Assembly: GCA_033838285.1 (NCBI GenBank)
Contig: JAJLLC010000059.1
Span: 42,995 to 106,994, forward strand
Length of the DNA: 64,000 nt
Direction: 5' to 3'
Source: Pseudomonadaceae bacterium
GTDB taxonomy: Bacteria > Pseudomonadota > Gammaproteobacteria > Pseudomonadales > Pseudomonadaceae
Positions 5,890 to 61,812 of this stretch are shown here, in pieces. Position 1 is the first letter of the stretch; the number at the start of each line of letters is the position of its first letter. Position numbers and translations under genes: made by a program. Under the pieces are notes generated by a model. The model was not told where the DNA came from. It was given only the letters and a program-made list of their open reading frames with translations, and ran no database searches.

Positions 5890-6048
5890 TGACTCCCCTC
5901 TCCCCCTGGGAGACGACTGCACGGATGCAGGAGGTAGGGCGATGCAGGAAGCCAAAGCCGAGGGGATGGGGGGTGAGGGACTGCCAAGCCACTCCGTGTT
6001 GCCCATAGCACCCTCACCCCAACCCTCTCCCGAGGGGAGAGGGAGTCA
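5890..6048. repeat. BoxC-like palindromic repeat doublet (hairpin-tail / tail-hairpin); first unit interrupted by a 48-bp insert
   Basis: TGACTCCCCTCTCCC-CCT-GGGAGA[5914-5961]GGGG-ATGGGGGGTGAGGG and inverted CCCTCACCCCAACCCTCTCCCGAGGGGAGAGGGAGTCA. Confidence 0.85.
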
Positions 6049-7182: not shown

Positions 7183-7207
7183 CCCCTCTCCCGTTCACGG
7201 GAGAGGG
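7183..7207. repeat. Single BoxC-like hairpin
   Basis: CCCCTCTCCCGTTCACGGGAGAGGG, identical core to the units at 15520 and 15990. Confidence 0.85.
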
Positions 7208-12748: not shown

Positions 12749-15070
12749 TCAGTCGTCGACGCGGAAGGTCACCCGCGCCGTCGCCCCGCTGCGGTCCAGC
12801 AGGCTGAGCTGGTAGAGGCCGGTCGCCGTCAGCCTCTGCTCGAGGCTCTCGCCCGGCCGGCTCTCGCCCACCGGCGCGCCATTGAGGAACCACCAGCGCG
12901 TGCCGCTGCCGCCCAGGGCCGAGAGGTTCAGGCGCAGCGGCCCGGCATTGCCGGCCGGGCGCCGCAGGCGATCGCCCTCGCGCACCCCGACTATCGACAG
13001 CGGCGCCGCCGGCGGCGGCAAGGCCGGCGGACACTCGGCGGACAGCGCCGGCAGGCGCGCGGCGCGCCGTTCTCGGCGCGGCAGCCAGGGCTCCAGCGGC
13101 GCCGGCCACAGGGCCAGCTGCACCTCGCGCGCGCCCGCGCAGCCCGCCGCCACCCGGTGCCCGGCCGCATCCAGCCAGACCCGCTGCAGCAACCCCAGGC
13201 CGAGCGGCTGGTCGAGTGCCGGCAGGGTCGGCGGCACGGTGCCGTCCAGGGTCCAGGCGAAGCGCTGGCGCCGACAGTTGCCATCGTCGCGCGCCAGCTC
13301 CTGGCCCAGCGGCCAGCAGATGGCGGCCACGCCGACGCTGGCCGGCACCTCCTGCGGCGGCGGCACCAGGCCGCGCTGGAGGTCGCGGTTGACCAGCAGA
13401 TCGTGCACCTGCAGCAGCAGCGGCGCGGCCGAGGCCAGGCCGAACTGGCCAGGCACCGGCGTGCCGTCCGGGCGACCTATCCATACGCCGATCAGCTGGC
13501 GCGGGCCGACGCCGATGGCCCAGGCGTCGCGGAAGCCGTAGCTGGTACCGGTCTTCCAGGCCAGCACGGGGCGCTGCACCAGCTCGGCACGCGGGTCGCG
13601 ATCCGGCCGCGCCTGGCCGGCGAGGATGCGCCGCACGATCCAGGCCGCGCCGGGCGACAGCAGGCGCCGCTCGTGCAGCGCTTCCTGCGGCTGTAGGCGT
13701 GGCCGCGCGGCCACCCCGCCACGGGCAAAGGCGCTGTAGCCGGCCAGCAGTTCCTCCAGACGGCTGCCGGCGCCACCGAGGATCAGTGCCAGGTTTGGCT
13801 CGGCGCCGGCCGGCAGCGCCAGCGGCACCCCGGCGCCGCGCAGCTCGCCGGCGAAACGCTTGGGCCCGTAGGCCTCCAGCAGCTGCACGGCGGGCAGGTT
13901 GAGCGAGGTGGCGAGGGCCTCGCTGGCCGACACCGGGCCGATGAAGCCGGCGGCGAAGTTGCCCGGACGATAGTCACCGTAGCGCCGCGGCACGTCCTGC
14001 AGCAGCGACTCGGAATGGATCAGCCCGGCGTCCAGGGCCAGGCCGTAGAGGAAGGGCTTGAGGGTCGAGCCGGGCGAGCGCTGGGCGCGGATCATGTCGA
14101 CATGGCCGTAGCGCTTGTCGTCGCCGACATCCAGCGAGCCGAGGTAGGCGCGCACCGCCATGCTCTCGCTGTCGACCACCAGGATGGCCGCCGAGGTGCG
14201 TTCCGGCAGGCGCGCGCGCCAGCCCAGCAGCAGGTCTTCCAGGCGCCGCTGCAGATGGGCGTCGATGGTGGTGCGAATCAGCGGCGGGCTGCCCGCCAGG
14301 TTCAGCCGCCGCGCCAGCAGCGGCGCCAGGCTGGGTTCCTGGCGCGGCGCCAGCAGCACCGGCTCCTGCAGCGCCTCCTCCACCGCCGCCTGCGGCCACA
14401 CCGAAAACTGCGCCAGGCGCCGCAACACCTTGTCGCGCGCGGCCTGGGCGCGCTCGGGGTGGCGGTCCGGGCGCAGCCGGCTGGGCGCCTGCGGCAGCAC
14501 GGCGAGCAGCGCCGCCTCGGCGCGGGTCAGCTGGCTCGGCGGCTTGCCCAGGTAGGCCCAGCTGGCCGCCGCCACCCCCTGCAGGGTGCCGCCGAAGGGC
14601 GCGCGGTTGAGGTAGAGGGCGAGGATCTCGTCCTTGGACAGGTGCCACTCCAGCTGCAGGGTGCGCCACAGCTGCTTGAACTTGCCGGCGAGGCTGCGCT
14701 GGTGCGGGTCGAGCAGGCGCGCCACCTGCATCGACAGGGTACTGCCGCCGGACACCACGCGCCCGCCGGACAGGTTCTGCCAGGCGGCGCGGCCCAGCGC
14801 CAGCGGGTTGACCCCGGGGTGGACGTGGAACCAGCGGTCCTCGTAGGTCAGCAGCGCCTCAAGGTAGTAGGGCGAGACTTCGCCCGGGGCCACCGGGTAG
14901 CGCCACACACCCTCGGCATCGGCGAAGCGCCACAGCGGCGTGCCGTCCTCGGCCAGCACCACGCGGGCCAGGCCGTCCTCGGGCAGCGGCAACGGAAACA
15001 GCCGGTCGGCCAGCCACAGCAGGGCCAGCGGCAGACCGAGCAAAGCCAGGGTCCGGCGCCAGCGCCTCAT
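12749..15070 (-). CDS. pbpC: Penicillin-binding protein 1C
   Basis: Transglycosylase EDRWF/GGSTLSMQVAR; transpeptidase SxxK (STLK), SLN, KTG; near alpha-2-macroglobulin. Start approximate. Confidence 0.92.
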   Translation of the reverse strand: MRRWRRTLALLGLPLALLWLADRLFPLPLPEDGLARVVLAEDGTPLWRFADAEGVWRYPVAPGEVSPYYLEALLTYEDRWFHVHPGVNPLALGRAAWQNLSGGRVVSGGSTLSMQVARLLDPHQRSLAGKFKQLWRTLQLEWHLSKDEILALYLNRAPFGGTLQGVAAASWAYLGKPPSQLTRAEAALLAVLPQAPSRLRPDRHPERAQAARDKVLRRLAQFSVWPQAAVEEALQEPVLLAPRQEPSLAPLLARRLNLAGSPPLIRTTIDAHLQRRLEDLLLGWRARLPERTSAAILVVDSESMAVRAYLGSLDVGDDKRYGHVDMIRAQRSPGSTLKPFLYGLALDAGLIHSESLLQDVPRRYGDYRPGNFAAGFIGPVSASEALATSLNLPAVQLLEAYGPKRFAGELRGAGVPLALPAGAEPNLALILGGAGSRLEELLAGYSAFARGGVAARPRLQPQEALHERRLLSPGAAWIVRRILAGQARPDRDPRAELVQRPVLAWKTGTSYGFRDAWAIGVGPRQLIGVWIGRPDGTPVPGQFGLASAAPLLLQVHDLLVNRDLQRGLVPPPQEVPASVGVAAICWPLGQELARDDGNCRRQRFAWTLDGTVPPTLPALDQPLGLGLLQRVWLDAAGHRVAAGCAGAREVQLALWPAPLEPWLPRRERRAARLPALSAECPPALPPPAAPLSIVGVREGDRLRRPAGNAGPLRLNLSALGGSGTRWWFLNGAPVGESRPGESLEQRLTATGLYQLSLLDRSGATARVTFRVDD

Positions 15071-15150
15071 CGCCGGCTCTCGCTGCGCGCGGGGGAGCGG
15101 CTGTGGCATGCTGCGCGGCAACGCTCATCGGTACTGCGGATATCCATACC

Positions 15151-15441
15151 TTGATCCAAGACTTCTTCGAGTGGCTAGGCCACGCCCTAGGCACCCTGAT
15201 CCGTTTCATCGTCGAAGCCCTGAGCGGCTTCTTCGGCCTGTTCGGCGACATCGGCCGCAGCTTCCTCAACGGTCTGGCCTCGGCCCTGGGCACCGACGTC
15301 GGCCTGCTCAGCATAGTGGCCATGCTCTGCGGCCTGCTGCTGCTCTACGCCGCGGTACGCGCCGGCCTGCGCAAGGCCTTCGTACGCATGGTGGTCTATG
15401 GGCTGCTGGGGTTGTGGTTGCTGAGTTTGATTGTGAGTTGA
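15151..15441 (+). CDS. Small hypothetical membrane protein
   Basis: Amphipathic N-terminus plus hydrophobic C-terminal helices, host-like codon usage; TTG start inferred. Confidence 0.65.
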   Translation: MIQDFFEWLGHALGTLIRFIVEALSGFFGLFGDIGRSFLNGLASALGTDVGLLSIVAMLCGLLLLYAAVRAGLRKAFVRMVVYGLLGLWLLSLIVS

Positions 15442-15896
15442 GGCTCTCCCCTCTCCCCCAGCCCCACTCCCACAAGTGGGCGAGGGGTGACGCCAAGCCA
15501 TACAACCCGCACATTCTGCCCCCTCTCCCGTTCACGGGAGAGGGCTGGGGCGGCCCGCGTAGGGAGAGGGTCGACTTCCAGACGAATTCGCTCCAACACC
15601 GCCTCCATCTCTGCCAGCACCTGATGATTCCAGAAGCGCAGTATCCGGTACCCCCGCGCGACCAGATATTCATCCCGCTCGTGATCCTGCTCGACCTGCT
15701 CCATATGCTGTCCGCCGTCCAGCTCGATCACCAGAAACTGCTCCAGGCAAACGAAGTCGACTATGTAGCGGCCGATGGGCTTCTGTCGCTTGAACTTGAG
15801 TCCCATGAAGCGCTGGGCGCGTAGCTGATACCAGAGCCGTGCCTCGGCGTCGGTCATATGGGTTCGCAGCGACCTGGCGTTTTCCCTCAGCCCCAT
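15396..15896 (-). CDS. DUF559 / YcjD-like (Vsr-related) putative endonuclease, C-terminus reading through flanking repeats
   Basis: AR.LR..MTDAE..LW..LR, KFKRQ.PIG.YIVDF.C, VIELDGGQH, D.ERD.YL...GY.ILRFWN. Confidence 0.9.
   Translation of the reverse strand: MGLRENARSLRTHMTDAEARLWYQLRAQRFMGLKFKRQKPIGRYIVDFVCLEQFLVIELDGGQHMEQVEQDHERDEYLVARGYRILRFWNHQVLAEMEAVLERIRLEVDPLPTRAAPALSRERERGQNVRVVWLGVTPRPLVGVGLGERGEPQLTIKLSNHNPSSP
15448..15570. repeat. BoxC-like doublet at the 3' flank of the DUF559 gene (second unit has a 14-bp insert)
   Basis: CCCCTCTCCCCCAGCCCCACTCCCACAAGTGGGCGAGGGG ... CCCCTCTCCCGTTCACGGGAGAGGGCTG[GGGCGGCCCGCGTA]GGGAGAGGG. Confidence 0.9.
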
Positions 15897-15918
15897 GGGA
15901 GCCCCCTTGCTCCTGTTA

Positions 15919-16026
15919 CCCTCTCCCCCGGCCCCTCTCCCACGAGTGGGAGAGGGGTGACTCCGCCCTCACCTCTCCCTACGGCCAGTCCCCTCTCCCG
16001 TTCACGGGAGAGGGTTAGGGAGAGGG
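15919..16026. repeat. BoxC-like doublet at the 5' flank of the DUF559 gene
   Basis: CCCTCTCCCCCGGCCCCTCTCCCACGAGTGGGAGAGGGG ... CCCCTCTCCCGTTCACGGGAGAGGGTTAGGGAGAGGG; direct repeat of the 15448-15570 doublet. Confidence 0.9.
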
Positions 16027-16032
16027 CGTAAC

Positions 16033-19000
16033 TCAGCGCCCCTTCACCACCAACCGCTCCGGCGCAGCCCCCACGGCATTCCACGCCGGTCGGTACATCG
16101 ATTCCACCTGCGGCGGCGGTACCCGGTAGCTGCCGGGGGTGACGGCGCGGGCCAGGTACAGCAGGTGGGTGGTGCCATAGCCGTTGACGGCGACGGCGGC
16201 GACGAAACGGTCGTCGCGGAACTCCTGGTGCTTGATCGCGGCGTTCTGCATCGCCTTCTGCCATTCCTTCACCGCGCTGCTGGCATCGCTCAGGCTGGCG
16301 GCGCTCTGCGCCAGGTTCTGGTTCTCCAGCTCCAGGCCGGCCGGCAGCAGGTCCACCACCAGGGCGTCGGGCACCCGCTCCTCGGCGCGCACCGCCAGGT
16401 GCACCAGCACCAGCTGGCCGCTGGCCAGGTTGCCTAGATCCAGCGGGCGGCCGTCCAGGCCATAGTAACCGCGCTCGATACTGAGGTTGTTGCCACGCGG
16501 CTGCGGCGCCTGGGTCGGGTAACCGGAAATGGTCAGCTGCTGGTACAGCTTGCCGGTGAAGTCCGAGCTCAGGCTCAGGGGTTCTACCAGGCTGGCGCCC
16601 TCCAGCTTGAGCGCCGGGTCGGCGTTGCTCAGCCCGCGCTGCTGGTCGCCGGCCTGCAGGCTGGCGCTCCAGTCACGCTCGGGCTGCTTGATCTGGCCGC
16701 GGCCGGCGAGGAACAGGGCATTGCGCTCCTGGGTCGACAGGTAGCGCTGCAGAGCACGCTCCTCGGCCAGCTGGAACAGCAGCTGGTCGCGGCTGGAGGC
16801 GGCCAGGTCGTTCTCCTCCAGCAGGGCCAGGATCAGGGCCTGGTCGCGCAACGGGCTGCCGTAGTCGGCCAGCCACTCCCGGCGCTGGCGGCCGAGGCCC
16901 AGGCCGAGGGCCAGGGCCTCGTCGGCGCGCGGTTTGTCGCCCATCTTCTGCAGGGCCACGGCCAGCTGCACCAGCGGCAGGCCGGACCTGGCATCCCCTC
17001 GCCGCTCGTACAGCGCGCGCAGGCTGCCCAGCGGCGCCTGCTGGCTGCGCGCCAGCACCAGGCCGGCGTAGGCCTGCACGGCGAAGCGAGTGTGGTCGAG
17101 GTTGTCGCTGTAGCCGGCGTCGATCAGCTGGCGGTCCTGCAGGTAGCGCAGCAGCCGCCCACTGGCCTTCTCCAGGGCCTCCGGCGGCACGGCGAAGCCC
17201 TGCTCGCGGGCGCGCAGGAGGAAGTCGGTGACATAGGCGGTCAGCCAGTGTTCCTCGTCGGCGTCCGCGCCCCACAGGCCGAAACTGCCGTTGTAGCGCT
17301 GCATGCCGAGCAGGCGCTCGATGCCGATCTCGATGGAACGGCGCCGCTGCTCCTCCGGCTCGCCTTCCAGGCCGAGCTTCTTCAGCGTCGCCGAATCGGC
17401 GTAGAGCGAGGGGTACAGGCCGCTGGTGGTCTGTTCCAGGCAGCCGTAGGGGTAGGCTTTGAGCGCCTGGATCTGCTCGGCCAGGTTCAGCGGCGGGCGG
17501 CTGGAGACGCTAAGCAGCGCCTCGCGCCCGGCCGGCTCGAAGGCCGCCAGGGTGCCGGCCGGCAGCTGCCAGCTGTCGCCCTGCAGCACGCCGCGCAGGT
17601 GTTGTTGCTGCGCCGGCCAGGCCGAGCGCACGCCGATGCGCCACTCGCGGGCGAAGGCCGGCAGGTTCTCGTCCGGCAGGCTCAGGCCATTGACCCTGAC
17701 CCGCACTATGCCGGCGCCATAGCCGCCGGCGGCGCGCACCGGGATGCGCAGGGTGCTGCGCTGGGCCTGCTCGAGCTGCAGCGGCGCGCTGTAGCCGGAA
17801 GGCGTCTCGGCCAGGCTCAGCTGGCCCTCGGCCTCGACCTGCACCTCGAGCTGCTGCGCGGCGCCGGACAGGTTGGTCAGGTCCAGGGCCAGGCTGGTCT
17901 CGTCGCCACCGGCGAGGAAGCGCGGCGCCGACAGCTCGGCCACCAGCGGCGCGGCCACCACCGTCTTGCCCTCGCCCATGCCGTAGCGCTCGTCGCTCCA
18001 GGCCTGGGCCATCAGGCGCAGCTCGCCATTGAAGTCGGGGATGTCCAGGCTGACGTCGCCTTCGCCCTGGGCGTTCAGTTCGATCGGCACGCTCTGCAAC
18101 GCGACTATGGTGACGCTGGTGTCCGGACGCTTGCCGCCCTTGGCCAGCGCCGCGTCGCCGCCGAAGGCCAGCTTGGCCAGGCGACCCTGGCCGGCCTCGA
18201 TCAGCTGGCCGTAGACGTCGAGCTGGTCGACACCGTAGGCCTTGCGGCCGAACAGTTCGGCGAAGGGGTCGGGGGTCTGGTATTCGGTGATGTTGAGGAT
18301 GCCGACGTCCACCGCCGCCACCAGCACCTTGACCTTCTGCGCCGGGCTGCCGTCGGCATTCTTCGCCTGCACCCGCACCTTCAGCGGCTGCTGCGGACGC
18401 ATCTTCTCCGGCGCGTTCAGGCTGACCTCGAGCTTGCGCGGCGCGCGGTCGAACGGCAGGTGCAGCAGGCCCACGGCGCGCTTGGGCGTGGCCCCGGCCT
18501 TGCGCTCGCCGGGACGGATGACCAGGGCGCTGACGTACAGGTCATGCCGCGCCCACTCCTCGGCCAGGGGGATATCGAAGCGCTGGCCCTCGGCCGGCAC
18601 CTCGATCTCCTGCCACCACAGCGGGCCATCGCTGGACTCGACCATCAGGTAGCCGCTGCCGGCCGCCGGTGGCGTGACCGTCACCTGGGCCGTGTCGCCG
18701 GCGCCATAGGCCGGCTTGTCCAGCGCCAGCTTGACCTGATCCGGGCGCACCGCGCCGCCCTCGGCGTTGTCCTGCCAGGAGTAGCCGGCCCAGAAGCGCA
18801 GGCTGCTCATGATGCCGGTCACCGGGTCGGTGACCTCGACCCGGTAGGGGCCCCACTCCACCGGGAAGCTGACCTTGGCGGTGCCGCCGGCGGCGACCCT
18901 GAGGCTCTCCTCGCCGAGGTTGAGGAACTTCTCGTTGTAGTGATAGTTCCAGCCGTCGTTCTCCGAGAAGCTCCAGTAGTAGTCGCGGCGCTCGCGGATC

Positions 19001-20937
19001 AGGCGCACCCGCAGCTCGTCGCTGGCCAGCTTGTTGCCGACGGCGTCGGCCAGCAGCACCTCGAACTCGGCCAGGCCGTCGCCGTCCACCTCGTCTCCGT
19101 CGAACAGCGTGCGCACCCCCGGCAGGCGCTCGGCCGGCCACACCGACTGCACCAGGCGGCGGGTGATCGGGCGGCCGCCGGATTCCTGCAGGCTGGCCTG
19201 GAGGATCAGCTGCAGCGGCGAGCGGGCCTCGCTCCAGCGGTTCTCCACCGCGAGCGTGGCCTTGCCCTGGGCGTCCAGGGTGGTCTCCTCCAGCTCCAGG
19301 TCCTGGCTCAGCTCCTCCTCGGTGACCGAGCCGAACTGGTAGCCGGGCAGCGCCTTGACCGCCTCGCGCAGCGGACGCACGTAGAGCTGGCCGCCGAGGC
19401 GGTTGCCTGAGGCCGGCGCGCCATAGAGGTAGCGGCCCTCGACCGCGAAACGCGCCTCGTCGCTCGGCGCCAGGGGCCTGTCGCTGCCCTTAAGCTCCAG
19501 GGCCAGGCGTTCGGGGAGGAAATCCTCGACCAGGAACTCGTAGACCTGGCGGCGGCCACCGCCGAAGTCGAACAGCAGTTGCCAGCGCCCGGTCGGCGCC
19601 TCGCCGGCCAGTTGCAGCTTGTATTGGTAGAGGCCGCCCGCGCCGGGCTCCCAGACGAACTTGCGGCTGACCTGCTCGTCCGGCCGGCGCACCTCCACGT
19701 TGACCGGCTGCGGCTGCACCGCGCGGCCGTCGGCGTCGCGCAGCAGGGCGTTGAGCAGCACCAGCTCGCCCGGGCGATACAGGTCGCGCGGGCCGAACAC
19801 GAAGAACTGCAGCGGGTTGGCCACCGCGCCGGCGATGTCGAACTCGGCCAGGTCCAGGGCCGGGCTGCCGAGGTTGAGCAGGCTGGTCTGCTCGCCCTGG
19901 CGCGCCAGCACCAGGCTGGCCTTGTCCGGCAGGGGTAGCTCGGCGTGGCCGGCGGCGTCGGTCTTGGCGCTGGCCAGCACCTGGCCCTTGTCGCCGAGCA
20001 GTTCGACTTCCACGCCCTCCAGGGCCTTGCCGCCTTCCAGGGCCTGGGCGAAGGCATCCAGGCGGCCGTGGTAGCGGTGCACGGACAGGCCGATGTCGCT
20101 GAGGGTGAACAGGGTCGCCGGCTGCTGGTAGTTGTAGGTGCCGGCCTGGCGCATCACCGCCAGGTACACCCCCGGCTGCTGCAGCGGCTCCAGGCCGGCG
20201 ATCGGCAGTAGCAGAGTCTCGCGCACGTTGCGCGCCGGGTTCAGCTCGAAGCGCCCGCCATACACCAGCTCGGCCATCGGCAGCAGCTCGCGCGCCTCCC
20301 AGGTGTCCAGGTTGGCCCCGCGCCCCCAGTGGGCGAGGAAAGTCGGCAGCGCCTCCTGGCGGATACGGAAGAATTCGACGTTGACCTGGTCGACGTTCAG
20401 CGCGATCACCGGCAGGCCCTCGGCCAGGCGGGTCGGCAGCAGCGAGCCGCGGCTGGCGAAGCCGACCGTGGGCTGCAGGTCGCGGGTCGCGATCTCGGCG
20501 TTGAACTCGGCGGCCAGCTCGCTGCCGTTGATCGCGCGCAGGCCGCGATCCACCGTGAGCGCCAGCTTGCGCTTGGGCGGCAGGTGGCGCAGGCGCAGCT
20601 CCATCAGGTTGGCGGACAGCTCCCAGGCGCCGTCGACCTTGCCGCTCTTCTTGTCCACCAGGTGCAGTTTCGCGGCGAAGTCCTGCTCGGGGTCGAGCGG
20701 CACGCTGAAGCTCACCGCCAGGGTACTGGCGCCGTCCAGCTGGATTTCCGAGGCGTCGGCCACGCTCAGCTCGCGGCCGGCGTAGCGCTTGGCCAGCGCC
20801 GCCTGGTCCAGCGCCGGCCGGGGCTGGGTCTGCTCGGTGGTGGGTTTGCCGGCGACAGGCGCACCGTCCGGGGTGGAGGAATCGCAGCCGCCCAGCAGGG
20901 CGAGCGCGAGGGCCAGAAACAATCCGTTGCTACGCAT
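16033..20937 (-). CDS. Bacterial alpha-2-macroglobulin lipoprotein (thioester-containing, YfhM-like)
   Basis: Lipobox LGGC, RDLYRPGE, YPYGCLEQ thioester motif, VESMYRP C-terminus. Confidence 0.95.
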   Translation of the reverse strand: MRSNGLFLALALALLGGCDSSTPDGAPVAGKPTTEQTQPRPALDQAALAKRYAGRELSVADASEIQLDGASTLAVSFSVPLDPEQDFAAKLHLVDKKSGKVDGAWELSANLMELRLRHLPPKRKLALTVDRGLRAINGSELAAEFNAEIATRDLQPTVGFASRGSLLPTRLAEGLPVIALNVDQVNVEFFRIRQEALPTFLAHWGRGANLDTWEARELLPMAELVYGGRFELNPARNVRETLLLPIAGLEPLQQPGVYLAVMRQAGTYNYQQPATLFTLSDIGLSVHRYHGRLDAFAQALEGGKALEGVEVELLGDKGQVLASAKTDAAGHAELPLPDKASLVLARQGEQTSLLNLGSPALDLAEFDIAGAVANPLQFFVFGPRDLYRPGELVLLNALLRDADGRAVQPQPVNVEVRRPDEQVSRKFVWEPGAGGLYQYKLQLAGEAPTGRWQLLFDFGGGRRQVYEFLVEDFLPERLALELKGSDRPLAPSDEARFAVEGRYLYGAPASGNRLGGQLYVRPLREAVKALPGYQFGSVTEEELSQDLELEETTLDAQGKATLAVENRWSEARSPLQLILQASLQESGGRPITRRLVQSVWPAERLPGVRTLFDGDEVDGDGLAEFEVLLADAVGNKLASDELRVRLIRERRDYYWSFSENDGWNYHYNEKFLNLGEESLRVAAGGTAKVSFPVEWGPYRVEVTDPVTGIMSSLRFWAGYSWQDNAEGGAVRPDQVKLALDKPAYGAGDTAQVTVTPPAAGSGYLMVESSDGPLWWQEIEVPAEGQRFDIPLAEEWARHDLYVSALVIRPGERKAGATPKRAVGLLHLPFDRAPRKLEVSLNAPEKMRPQQPLKVRVQAKNADGSPAQKVKVLVAAVDVGILNITEYQTPDPFAELFGRKAYGVDQLDVYGQLIEAGQGRLAKLAFGGDAALAKGGKRPDTSVTIVALQSVPIELNAQGEGDVSLDIPDFNGELRLMAQAWSDERYGMGEGKTVVAAPLVAELSAPRFLAGGDETSLALDLTNLSGAAQQLEVQVEAEGQLSLAETPSGYSAPLQLEQAQRSTLRIPVRAAGGYGAGIVRVRVNGLSLPDENLPAFAREWRIGVRSAWPAQQQHLRGVLQGDSWQLPAGTLAAFEPAGREALLSVSSRPPLNLAEQIQALKAYPYGCLEQTTSGLYPSLYADSATLKKLGLEGEPEEQRRRSIEIGIERLLGMQRYNGSFGLWGADADEEHWLTAYVTDFLLRAREQGFAVPPEALEKASGRLLRYLQDRQLIDAGYSDNLDHTRFAVQAYAGLVLARSQQAPLGSLRALYERRGDARSGLPLVQLAVALQKMGDKPRADEALALGLGLGRQRREWLADYGSPLRDQALILALLEENDLAASSRDQLLFQLAEERALQRYLSTQERNALFLAGRGQIKQPERDWSASLQAGDQQRGLSNADPALKLEGASLVEPLSLSSDFTGKLYQQLTISGYPTQAPQPRGNNLSIERGYYGLDGRPLDLGNLASGQLVLVHLAVRAEERVPDALVVDLLPAGLELENQNLAQSAASLSDASSAVKEWQKAMQNAAIKHQEFRDDRFVAAVAVNGYGTTHLLYLARAVTPGSYRVPPPQVESMYRPAWNAVGAAPERLVVKGR

Positions 20938-21015
20938 GGCGGGCCTCAATACAGGTGATCCGAGGCCCAGCACTATAGCCGAGAGCGCGCGGCGTTTCCG
21001 GCAGGATGCCTCAGC

Positions 21016-57915: not shown

Positions 57916-58035
57916 CTCGGATTGCACCCGGGCTGCGGCCTGCCTCCCCTCTCCCGCTTGCGGGAGAGGGGCCGGGGGAGAGGGTTCGCCAGACCACGCC
58001 CCTCTCCCTAACCCTCTCCCATCAATGGGAGAGGG
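57916..58035. repeat. Decayed GTAG-type REP (57916-57936) followed by a BoxC-like doublet (57947-58035)
   Basis: CTCGGATTGCACCCGGGCTGC; CCCCTCTCCCGCTTGCGGGAGAGGGGCCGGGGGAGAGGG and CCCTCTCCCTAACCCTCTCCCATCAATGGGAGAGGG. Confidence 0.88.
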
Positions 58036-61700: not shown

Positions 61701-61812
61701 CCCTCTCCCCCGGCCCCTCTCCACTAGGCGTGCCCCCGCAAGCGAGCGAGGGGAGACAAGCGGCGCCGTGCAAGCCCCCTCTCCCATTCATGGGAGAGGG
61801 TTGGGGAGAGGG
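61701..61812. repeat. BoxC-like doublet; first unit has a 14-bp insert
   Basis: CCCTCTCCCCCGGCCCCTCTCC[ACTAGGCGTGCCCC]CGCAAGCGAGCGAGGGG ... CCCCCTCTCCCATTCATGGGAGAGGGTTGGGGAGAGGG. Confidence 0.88.

Follow-up and report, generated by a model that had tools for sequence, protein, structure and literature searches.

Organization of the locus

The window, a 64,000-nucleotide stretch of a Pseudomonadaceae genome, contains a small nuclease gene of the DUF559 family (15576–15896, minus strand; Vsr-like, EDxHD-type PD-(D/E)xK) that is flanked on both sides by doublets of a hairpin repeat. The gene starts with an ATG at 15896, and its domain extends to about 15576. Translation of 15396–15896 on the minus strand shows that a stop is missing at the domain end. 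The open reading frame continues through a 59-codon tail (15396–15575, minus strand) that crosses the downstream doublet, overlaps the 3′ end of a convergent membrane-protein gene and reaches a stop at 15396–15398; the open frames of DUF559 orthologues are shorter, at 122–145 aa. The upstream neighbour on the same strand is a bacterial alpha-2-macroglobulin gene (a2m; 16033–20973, minus strand) with ten A2M/bMG Pfam domains, and a pbpC-type penicillin-binding protein gene with Transgly, Transpeptidase and BiPBP_C domains is located at 12749–15121 on the minus strand. The initial annotation placed the nuclease gene between a2m and pbpC. The domains of both neighbours agree with this, but a small conserved membrane-protein gene (15103–15441, plus strand), convergent with the cassette, also lies between the cassette and pbpC. 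Its product matched no family in a Pfam search; homologous open frames are present in genomes G019, G020 and G004, and in cassette-less relatives this gene sits between a2m and pbpC.

Assignment of the nuclease to its family is based on a profile search, in which the frame at 15396–15896 matches PF04480 over residues 3–107 with E 7.8e-42 and 142 bits (curated cut-off, 20.6 bits). The sole other Pfam family matched is the related REase-fold PF18741, which falls below its cut-off, and the DUF559 match is the single one in the genome. Residues E56, D58, H62 and D69 are invariant in an alignment of eight congeners. The protein also matches PDB entry 3HRL (E 4e-39) and the homing nuclease I-Bth0305I (3R3P; E 0.0035). 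Judged by sequence similarity, it is homologous to I-Bth0305I and Vsr, and the predicted catalytic residues are conserved. The gene is under purifying selection, with a dN/dS of about 0.1 (range 0.09–0.15) and internal stops in none of 45 DUF559 matches in the genus. DUF559 genes are rare on plasmids, where they are mostly carried by megaplasmids and chromids, and 50,697 phage records yielded only two weak matches (about 40% identity). Despite the solved structure, we found neither a function assigned to DUF559 nor an assay of its nuclease activity in the literature searched.

Repeat units flanking the DUF559 gene

The repeat is built on the 9-mer CCCTCTCCC, which has 26 exact matches in the window where 1.16 are expected, a count reached in none of 100 shuffles. 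The 5′-side doublet (15919–16026) consists of a type B and a type A unit with tails directed outward. The type B unit (15919–15957) comprises a tail, a CCGGC spacer and a hairpin with loop ACGAGT, and the type A unit (15991–16026) comprises a hairpin with loop GTTCAC, a TTA spacer and a tail. This doublet begins 6 nt past the a2m stop codon and stops 22 nt short of the DUF559 ATG. As a single strand it is predicted to fold into a tail–tail stem that closes the two hairpins (−36.7 kcal/mol, z −6.0).

The 3′-side doublet (15449–15570) pairs a degraded type B unit with a hairpin whose tail is distant. The segment at 15449–15487 is a degraded copy of the type B unit at 15919–15957. The hairpin at 15521–15544 has the loop GTTCAC and is followed, after an unusually long 17-nt spacer, by a tail at 15562–15570, which is positioned 5 nt past the DUF559 domain. 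The doublets repeat each other in direct orientation, spaced by 470 nt, with 46 nt at 89% and 31 nt at 94% identity, and their loops agree (ACAAGT versus ACGAGT, and GTTCAC in both). The bracketing of the gene by two directly repeated doublets, as described in the initial annotation, is thus confirmed. Given 64 repeat clusters and our estimate of about 3,300 intergenic spacers, the chance that both flanks of the DUF559 gene are occupied is about 4e-4.

Identity of the repeat

This unit is a repeat already described in the literature, the BoxC/PIT/TMECO G/C-rich triplex motif (Bachellier and co-workers, 1990s; Hoyne and Maher, 2000; Holder et al., 2015, PMC4666352), as the initial annotation suggested from its shape; its copies are called TM units below. 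The shared features are three G/C-rich mirror-symmetric blocks that form a hairpin plus a tail repeating one arm, type A and type B spacers, inverted A+B doublets, conserved stems, variable loops and an intergenic location. The Escherichia coli motif has type A (TTA) and type B (CCG) second loops, and its close inverted pairs are always A+B (PMC4666352). The 9-mer CCCTCTCCC reads identically backwards, and this mirror symmetry of the blocks makes an intrastrand triplex possible. Elements of this kind are present in hundreds of genomes; they form triplexes in vitro, and the loci that they mark are unstable. Two features differ from the published descriptions: the main subfamily here has 6-nt palindromic loops that extend the stem, and the motif brackets a nuclease gene. 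Holder et al. saw no mobility genes, transposase or integrase near TMECO sites and stated explicitly that they saw no protein partner (PMC4666352).

The E. coli arrangement given in the initial annotation is also correct, in that ycjD adjoins fabI and a TMECO unit lies about 150 bp downstream; E. coli K-12 has 23 TMECO loci. No paper that connects the gene with the repeat emerged from our literature searches on DUF559, ycjD and BoxC/TMECO; what comes closest is a table row that lists DUF559 among predicted inversion targets.

Gene-less copies and the genome-wide repeat population

The 9-mer is present 301 times in the whole genome, which also contains 88 perfect hairpins and 85 three-block units (C9-loop-G9-spacer-G9, with up to one mismatch per block) grouped in 64 clusters. 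The commonest spacers are GCCGG (19), TTA (12), TTG (8) and GCTGG (6). All 20 inverted doublets combine a unit with a 2–4-nt spacer (mostly 3) and a unit with a 4–6-nt spacer (mostly 5, GCYGG-like). TM units of this genome are intergenic, with stems more conserved than loops. Their median distance downstream of a stop codon is about 22 nt, and they avoid divergent (promoter) spacers, where 2 are observed and about 11 expected; their orientation has no strand bias relative to transcription (12 versus 8).

Four sites in the window carry the repeat with no DUF559 gene. An A+B doublet at 57947–58035 has its hairpins outward and its tails inward around a 15-nt gap, and part of it is kept at the same site in G019, G163 and G060. 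One degraded and one intact unit are found at 61701–61812, a site occupied by other palindromic repeats in three relatives. The element at 5890–6048, about 165 bp long, belongs to a second subfamily with a 3-nt loop and a GGGTGAGGG tail; it is inserted directly after a stop codon, and the site is empty in G019 and G163. The fourth site (7184–7207) is a lone hairpin, CCCTCTCCC-GTTCAC-GGGAGAGGG, which has no tail and is not counted among the three-block units. All four had been reported as copies of the same unit. Their presence stands, but the second-subfamily element and the tail-less hairpin require that description to be narrowed.

The gaps inside doublets are unique sequence in this genome, and the idea that the doublets are copies of one progenitor is therefore rejected here; such copying does hold for a 180-bp element of other genomes, described below. 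No target-site duplication was seen at the doublet and cassette borders, and the cassette contains no transposase. A search of this genome for other cargo between TM pairs returned only hyi, an ordinary operon gene with doublets on both sides, which is about what chance predicts.

Gene–repeat linkage across bacteria

All nine DUF559 loci examined (eight from the genus and one from a neighbouring family) have TM units on their flanks, in at least six different genomic contexts. A broader set of 80 loci was drawn from Pseudomonadota, Planctomycetota, Chloroflexota, Nitrospirota, Bacteroidota and others. A pyrimidine/purine hairpin is present within 300 bp of the DUF559 gene in 77 of these loci and on both sides in 66, and the stem is nearly always CCCTCTCC-like. 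Hairpin density falls from 4.3/kb near the gene to 0.17/kb more than 1 kb away, a 25-fold local enrichment. The motif is therefore strongly enriched beside DUF559 genes, as the initial annotation anticipated.

Its further expectation, that repeat number tracks the presence of the gene, is borne out among 201 congeners. At least 10 exact hairpins are present in 32 of the 37 genomes with DUF559 and in 11 of the 164 without it. Sixteen congeners have at least 100 hairpins, and 13 of them carry the gene. Conversely, the gene is lacking in 11 of the 43 genomes with at least 10 hairpins and in 3 of the 16 with at least 100, examples being G024 (118 hairpins) and G061 (150). Two genomes flagged as unpublished, G115 and G167, which have neither gene nor hairpins, enter only these 201-genome tallies, and none of the conclusions rests on them. 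In phylogenetically independent pairs, a test set beforehand, hairpins are more numerous in the genome with the gene in 12 of 13 cases (p=0.0034); the pairs were taken from an rpoB tree, a one-gene, quick-search tree of 60 genomes of our choosing. A binary-threshold version of the test points in the right direction and is underpowered (median p 0.125). The genome described here could not be placed on the tree because rpoB is missing from its assembly, and its probable kinship to G019 is inferred from a2m (89% identity). The DUF559 gene is very patchy, with at least 13 state changes on the 60 tips, and is present in 1–2 copies per genome alongside 50–390 potential targets. The correlation between gene and repeat number would be equally expected if the gene merely preferred repeat-rich genomes.

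Repeat subtypes and empty sites

Repeat subtype co-varies with protein clade, which agrees with the co-phylogeny first suggested. In genomes with one gene copy, clade-1 DUF559 proteins are accompanied by hairpins with 6-nt loops (43–98% of hairpins). Clade-2 proteins are accompanied by 3-nt loops, six-nucleotide loops amounting to about 1%. G014 encodes two DUF559 paralogs, each surrounded by its own repeat subtype. Full copies of the dispersed 180-bp element border the gene in the clade-2 genomes.

In both contexts studied, relatives have clean empty sites, and here too the initial proposal is upheld. At context A, which is common to three species, and at context B, which is probably syntenic in several complete genomes as judged from chromosome coordinates only, the empty site holds only a terminator hairpin, with TM units absent. 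Gain or loss of the repeats therefore coincides with that of the gene, and gene plus doublets constitute one insertion/deletion unit. A recent burst of copies tied to DUF559 was sought by comparing one gene-bearing with one gene-less genome, and copy divergence did not differ: similarity is 0.818 within the former, 0.821 within the latter and 0.816 between them.

Comparison with nuclease– and transposase–repeat systems

RAYTs are the known movers of REP-type repeats. The DUF559 locus resembles the REP/REPIN–RAYT system (Nunvar 2010; Bertels and Rainey 2011) in that a single-copy gene is flanked by a dispersed inverted-doublet repeat, gene presence predicts repeat abundance, and relic repeats persist in gene-less kin. 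It differs in its enzyme, a PD-(D/E)xK nuclease rather than an HUH Y1 (IS200/IS605-like) transposase, in the much patchier distribution of the gene among species, and in the repeat population, which has no dominant master sequence and whose copies are about 82% alike. To our knowledge, a 105-aa PD-(D/E)xK core has no way of carrying out strand transfer by itself, so the RAYT analogy holds for layout and not for a demonstrated mechanism. The initial annotation had cast DUF559 as a RAYT/REP analogue. That comparison survives for the layout; the gene-less repeat-rich genomes (11/43 and 3/16) and the equal divergence of copies weigh against DUF559 as a simple driver of the RAYT kind.

The second comparison is with the Ssn (GIY-YIG) nucleases and their NTS/SRM hairpin repeats (Chenal et al. 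2025, PMC11893778). Across phyla, both systems combine a small stand-alone nuclease gene with flanking copies of a dispersed hairpin repeat of its own, and the share of repeat-rich genomes with the gene is 81% for Ssn (PMC11893778) and 13/16 for DUF559. Linkage is tighter for DUF559 (96% on one side and 82% on both, versus 71% and 42% for Ssn; PMC11893778), and both the nuclease superfamily and the repeat are different. Ssn cleaves single-stranded DNA next to a hairpin and modulates natural transformation (PMC11893778), whereas the activity of DUF559 is predicted.

The Vsr-like catalytic core of DUF559 is homologous to that of Vsr and the EDxHD homing endonuclease I-Bth0305I, and its E, D, H and D residues are conserved. 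I-Bth0305I is a multidomain protein encoded in a group I intron inside recA and homes into the intron-less allele (Taylor et al. 2011, PMC3239194). DUF559, by contrast, is the 105-aa core alone, encoded by a free-standing, intergenic and repeat-bracketed gene. With neither a target-site duplication nor a cognate transposase seen, the locus also differs from a MITE or TIR transposon.

Interpretation

We favour, with moderate confidence, the interpretation that the locus is a DUF559–TM cassette in which DUF559 is the cognate sequence- or structure-specific nuclease of the BoxC/PIT/TMECO repeat. This interpretation is based on the observed linkage, co-occurrence, subtype co-variation, indel behaviour, purifying selection and nuclease homology. 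From these we infer that DUF559 probably binds and cleaves the repeat and may have some role in spreading TM units. Because the same gene–repeat pairing recurs across many phyla, DUF559 is the best candidate yet for the protein partner of the BoxC repeat.

The alternative that survives best sees in DUF559 a selfish, free-standing nuclease gene for which TM repeats are targets or preferred landing sites; the repeats would be made and spread by something else, and the gene would neither maintain nor multiply them. Homology to a true homing endonuclease, the patchiness of the gene, the repeat-rich genomes that lack it and the equal age of copies with and without it are consistent with such a settler, and a larger number of targets would likewise produce the gene–repeat correlation. 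However, the empty sites of both contexts hold no TM repeat, so no resident repeat was available there for the gene to land in. The low gene number per genome relative to the supply of targets, and the two G014 paralogs with their separate subtypes, also argue against it, and we regard this alternative as rather unlikely.

It is improbable that TM units have a structural or regulatory role (as terminators, insulators, mRNA stabilisers or host-factor binding sites), travel with a small gene as part of its cassette and have no enzyme–site relation to DUF559. Their placement close behind stop codons and away from divergent spacers fits such a role, as does the observation that in relatives they take the same slots as REPs and terminators. 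Yet tests by Maher and co-workers, to the extent quoted in PMC4666352, found neither promoter nor terminator activity, the units are unbiased in strand, and neither the bracketing of one protein family across phyla nor subtype co-variation is explained.

Movement of TM repeats by a RAYT, an IS transposase or another enzyme, with DUF559 as a passenger, is very improbable. Enzymes of the first kind do move REP-type repeats, and this genome encodes one RAYT (PF01797) elsewhere, but that gene has a distinct REP of its own, CCCGGACTGAAGTCCGGGCTAC, on its flanks and no TM unit there, and is rejected as the mover. The published survey of TMECO sites cited above likewise saw no transposase or integrase, and the IS3 of G142 does no more than interrupt a TM element. 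That a small gene came to lie beside an abundant intergenic repeat by chance, which the doublets around hyi might suggest, has a negligible probability and is refuted by the recurrence of the layout in 77 of 80 loci across phyla with 25-fold local enrichment, and by the excess of CCCTCTCCC in the window.

If DUF559 is the cognate nuclease, its substrate would be the hairpin-plus-tail unit or a doublet in its branched fold, where it would nick or cut. Gene-less units behind stop codons would then represent sites of DUF559 or else non-autonomous copies derived from cassette ends. Repair of the cuts by the host could lead to copying, turnover and the reported local instability of the motifs. A bolder proposal, which we hold only tentatively, sees DUF559 as the enzyme that founded a third kind of nuclease-plus-repeat system. 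A minimal Vsr-like nuclease would in this case recognise the repeat unit or doublet in its folded form, and cutting and host repair would multiply, homogenise or replace repeats across phyla.

BoxC/PIT/TMECO has been known since the 1990s, and neither a protein partner nor an origin is reported in the literature searched. The DUF559 nucleases, E. coli YcjD among them, form an orphan family as well, and a very widespread one. The pairing turns two orphans into one hypothesis that is directly testable in E. coli K-12. If it is correct, a PD-(D/E)xK enzyme joins the few small nucleases known to have a dispersed repeat of their own, and DUF559 may prove to be a structure-specific nuclease of practical use. 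If the third-system proposal is also true, it would account for a repeat that has been an orphan for 30 years and for the associated genome instability, and the DUF559–TM system would join RAYT/REPIN and Ssn/SRM.

The DUF559 locus and its flanking repeats

The window (G000:C59:42995-106994) comes from a draft genome of 3.54 Mb (67% G+C, 87% complete), for which Pseudomonas chaetocerotis is the best named match among related loci. The minus-strand ORF at 15396-15896 matches DUF559 over residues 3-107 (profile search, E 7.8e-42) and is the only DUF559 match in this genome. In minus-strand order, the stop codon of the alpha-2-macroglobulin gene (a2m, minus strand; 16033-16035) is followed by a 6-nt spacer, a repeat doublet at 15919-16026, 22 nt containing the ribosome-binding site, the DUF559 gene, a 5-nt spacer and a second doublet on the 3' side of the gene (15449-15570). 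The second doublet repeats the first in direct orientation, with matching loops. A convergent plus-strand gene for a small membrane protein (15103-15441) has its stop codon about 5 nt from the 15449-15570 doublet, and pbpC lies beyond.

The DUF559 frame lacks a stop codon at the domain end and reads through the downstream doublet for 59 extra codons (15396-15575); its orthologues reach a stop codon earlier. The last codons of the read-through overlap the 3' end of the membrane-protein gene. The encoded membrane protein is hydrophobic, about 105-112 aa long and without a Pfam family, and several congeners keep its gene in the a2m-pbpC interval; two others (G014 and G023) lack it.

The window contains 26 copies of the 9-mer CCCTCTCCC (1.16 expected). 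The nuclease gene and bracketing doublets described in the initial annotation are confirmed. There are 301 copies genome-wide, 8.6% of them (26/301) in the window, which makes up 1.8% of the assembly. The genome contains 88 perfect hairpins of the form CCCTCTCCC-N2..14-GGGAGAGGG and 85 three-block units, in which a tail repeats one arm of the hairpin. These lie in 64 clusters, 21 of them doublets.

Identity and structure of the repeat

The unit is the already known G/C-rich intrastrand triplex motif (TM) published as BoxC, PIT or TMECO. Stems of this motif are conserved and loops variable; the second loop is of type A (TTA) or type B (CCG), inverted pairs always join A with B, and a transposase or integrase was never observed close by (Holder et al. 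2015, PMC4666352). The most frequent spacers in the source genome are GCCGG, TTA, TTG and GCTGG, and in each of its 20 inverted doublets one unit has a short spacer, mostly of 3 nt, and the other a longer one, mostly of 5 nt and GCYGG-like. Single-stranded units are predicted to fold into 10-12-bp hairpins, and a single-stranded tails-outward doublet into two hairpins closed by a tail-tail stem (z = -6.0).

In the source genome the median distance from a cluster to the stop codon preceding it is about 22 nt, and the clusters have no preferred strand with respect to transcription. Tandem and convergent spacers are favoured (34 and 16 clusters) and divergent ones avoided (2, about 11 expected). 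TM doublets also occupy both spacers flanking the hydroxypyruvate isomerase gene between gcl and glxR (L118:589-1650 = G000:C58:67588-68648), in what looks like an operon. A second subfamily, found for example at window positions 5890-6048, combines 3-nt loops with a GGGTGAGGG tail and a conserved flank. In one congener (G060:C29:102018-102630), five identical hairpin matches at an exact 147-bp spacing suggest a tandem array of TM-containing units.

The DUF559 protein

Residues E56, D58, H62 and D69 are invariant in an alignment of eight congeners. The profile matches PDB 3HRL, an 'endonuclease-like protein' from Neisseria gonorrhoeae (E 4e-39), and the catalytic domain of the EDxHD homing endonuclease I-Bth0305I (E 0.0035). 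Values of dN/dS between orthologues are 0.09-0.15, and none of the 45 DUF559 matches in the genus has an internal stop codon. Plasmids rarely carry the gene, and 50,697 phage records yielded two weak matches (~40% identity).

Co-variation of gene and repeat within the genus

Short DUF559 is present in 37 and absent from 164 of the 201 genomes tallied (two flagged as unpublished, G115 and G167, lack gene and hairpins and enter these tallies only; none of the conclusions depends on them). At least 10 exact hairpins occur in 32/37 genomes with the gene and 11/164 without it, and the gene is found in 13 of the 16 genomes that reach 100 hairpins. Three genomes have only a long, 330-aa DUF559-containing protein, and all lack hairpins. 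Repeat number is thus associated with the gene that the initial annotation proposed as the cognate enzyme. To control for kinship, a sign test fixed in advance was applied to path-disjoint nearest pairs in a 60-genome rpoB tree. Hairpins were more numerous in the DUF559-bearing member of 12/13 pairs (p = 0.0034; random pairings, 8.9 versus 1.2). Repeat-bearing gene-less genomes are over-represented in this sample, a bias that disfavours the hypothesis; when the test was run with a threshold, ties were too numerous (median p 0.125).

Repeat subtype follows the protein as well. Hairpins with 6-nt loops make up 43-98% in clade-1 DUF559 genomes with one gene copy (65/87 in the source genome) and ~1% in clade-2 genomes. 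The latter carry a dispersed 180-bp element, two TM units around a conserved core of ~110 nt, and full copies of it flank their DUF559 gene. G014 has two paralogs, one flanked by 6-nt-loop and the other by 3-nt-loop units, a comparison free of phylogenetic confounding. Most repeat-rich genomes without the gene (G024, G067, G113, G019 and G163) fall within gene-bearing clades of the rpoB tree or are sisters to them, consistent with relic repeats left behind after DUF559 loss; G059 is an exception.

Insertion, loss and turnover

Relatives with empty sites, which the initial annotation had proposed to look for, were found at two contexts. The closest relative, G019 (a2m 89% identical), has neither TM unit nor DUF559 at the orthologous a2m site, only a GC hairpin terminator between the a2m and membrane-gene stops. 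In the second context, a block of ~900 bp made up of doublet, gene and doublets is present in G018 and G013, and four close relatives of G018 have a clean terminator there. Gene and doublets therefore come or go together as a single unit, and landing of the gene in a resident repeat is ruled out at both contexts. In G014 and G023 the cassette begins at the identical 6-nt offset from the a2m stop, which points either to a site preference or to shared ancestry, G019 having lost the cassette afterwards.

These clean sites, like the paralog-specific subtypes, fit poorly with a DUF559 gene that seeks TM-rich genomes and does not make the repeats. Such a gene would predict the gene-repeat correlation as well, and would accommodate both repeat-rich genomes without DUF559 and the equal divergence of TM copies within G142 (0.818), within G024 (0.821) and between both (0.816); we consider it unlikely.

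Gene-less TM units are insertion-polymorphic: those at 5890-6048 and 61701-61812 are absent at orthologous sites of relatives and that at 57947-58035 is shared. Certain intergenic slots hold, depending on species, the 180-bp element or a REPIN (CCTTCGCGAGCAGGCTCGCTCCCAC) (L180:428-608 and L180:9220-9400 versus L185, L186, L187 and L221-L223). Their distribution disagrees with the rpoB tree, as though the two repeat systems displaced one another at these sites. In G142 an IS3-family element (OrfA and DDE OrfB, ~1.3 kb; L181:15265-16680) lies between the two units of a TM element; this insertion is absent in three relatives.

Gene-repeat linkage across phyla

Besides the window locus, eight DUF559 loci were retrieved, seven of them from six congeners and the eighth from a neighbouring family. 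These eight all have TM units within about 50-250 bp of the gene, mostly on both sides, which brings the loci with TM units to nine out of nine, and the flanking genes represent at least six different contexts among the loci examined. The enrichment extends to 80 loci with the DUF559 profile from Pseudomonadota, Planctomycetota, Dehalococcoidia, Nitrospirota, Muribaculaceae, Elusimicrobia, Syntrophomonadaceae and others. A pyrimidine/purine hairpin, its stem nearly always CCCTCTCC-like, lies within 300 bp of the gene in 77/80 (both sides in 66/80), at a density of 4.3/kb close to the gene versus 0.17/kb at distances above 1 kb within these loci. A purely cis-regulatory role of TM units would suit their position behind stop codons and leaves this bracketing of one protein family across phyla without explanation; it appears improbable.

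The statement in the initial annotation that BoxC lies near fabI and the DUF559 gene ycjD in Escherichia coli was correct. In strain K-12, ycjD is located between fabI and sapF; a TMECO unit follows it ~150 bp downstream, and its 3' end bears a degenerate hairpin. Between ycjD and this TMECO unit, ~100 bp downstream of the gene, there is a second, partial copy of the ycjD 3' end (L100:3320-3365 versus L100:3438-3470).

Relation to RAYT and proposed mechanism

The RAYT-type Y1 transposase gene of the source genome (G000:C31:30280-30980, outside the window) has its own REP, CCCGGACTGAAGTCCGGGCTAC, on both sides (only 8 copies of this hairpin in the genome) and no TM units beside it, and RAYT is therefore rejected as the mover of TM repeats. 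RAYT/REP is instead a second nuclease/repeat pair of this genome, separate from DUF559/TM. At the a2m-pbpC junction of G010 (L010:150-800), a RAYT gene with GTAGCCCGGATGCAATCCGGG REPs replaces both the DUF559 cassette and the small membrane-protein gene.

Independent tests strongly support a partnership of the DUF559 gene and the TM repeat; no paper linking the two was found in the literature searched. Multiplication of TM repeats by DUF559 is less likely and partly contradicted. The best-supported mechanism is that DUF559 recognises or cuts the TM repeat, an activity that we infer.
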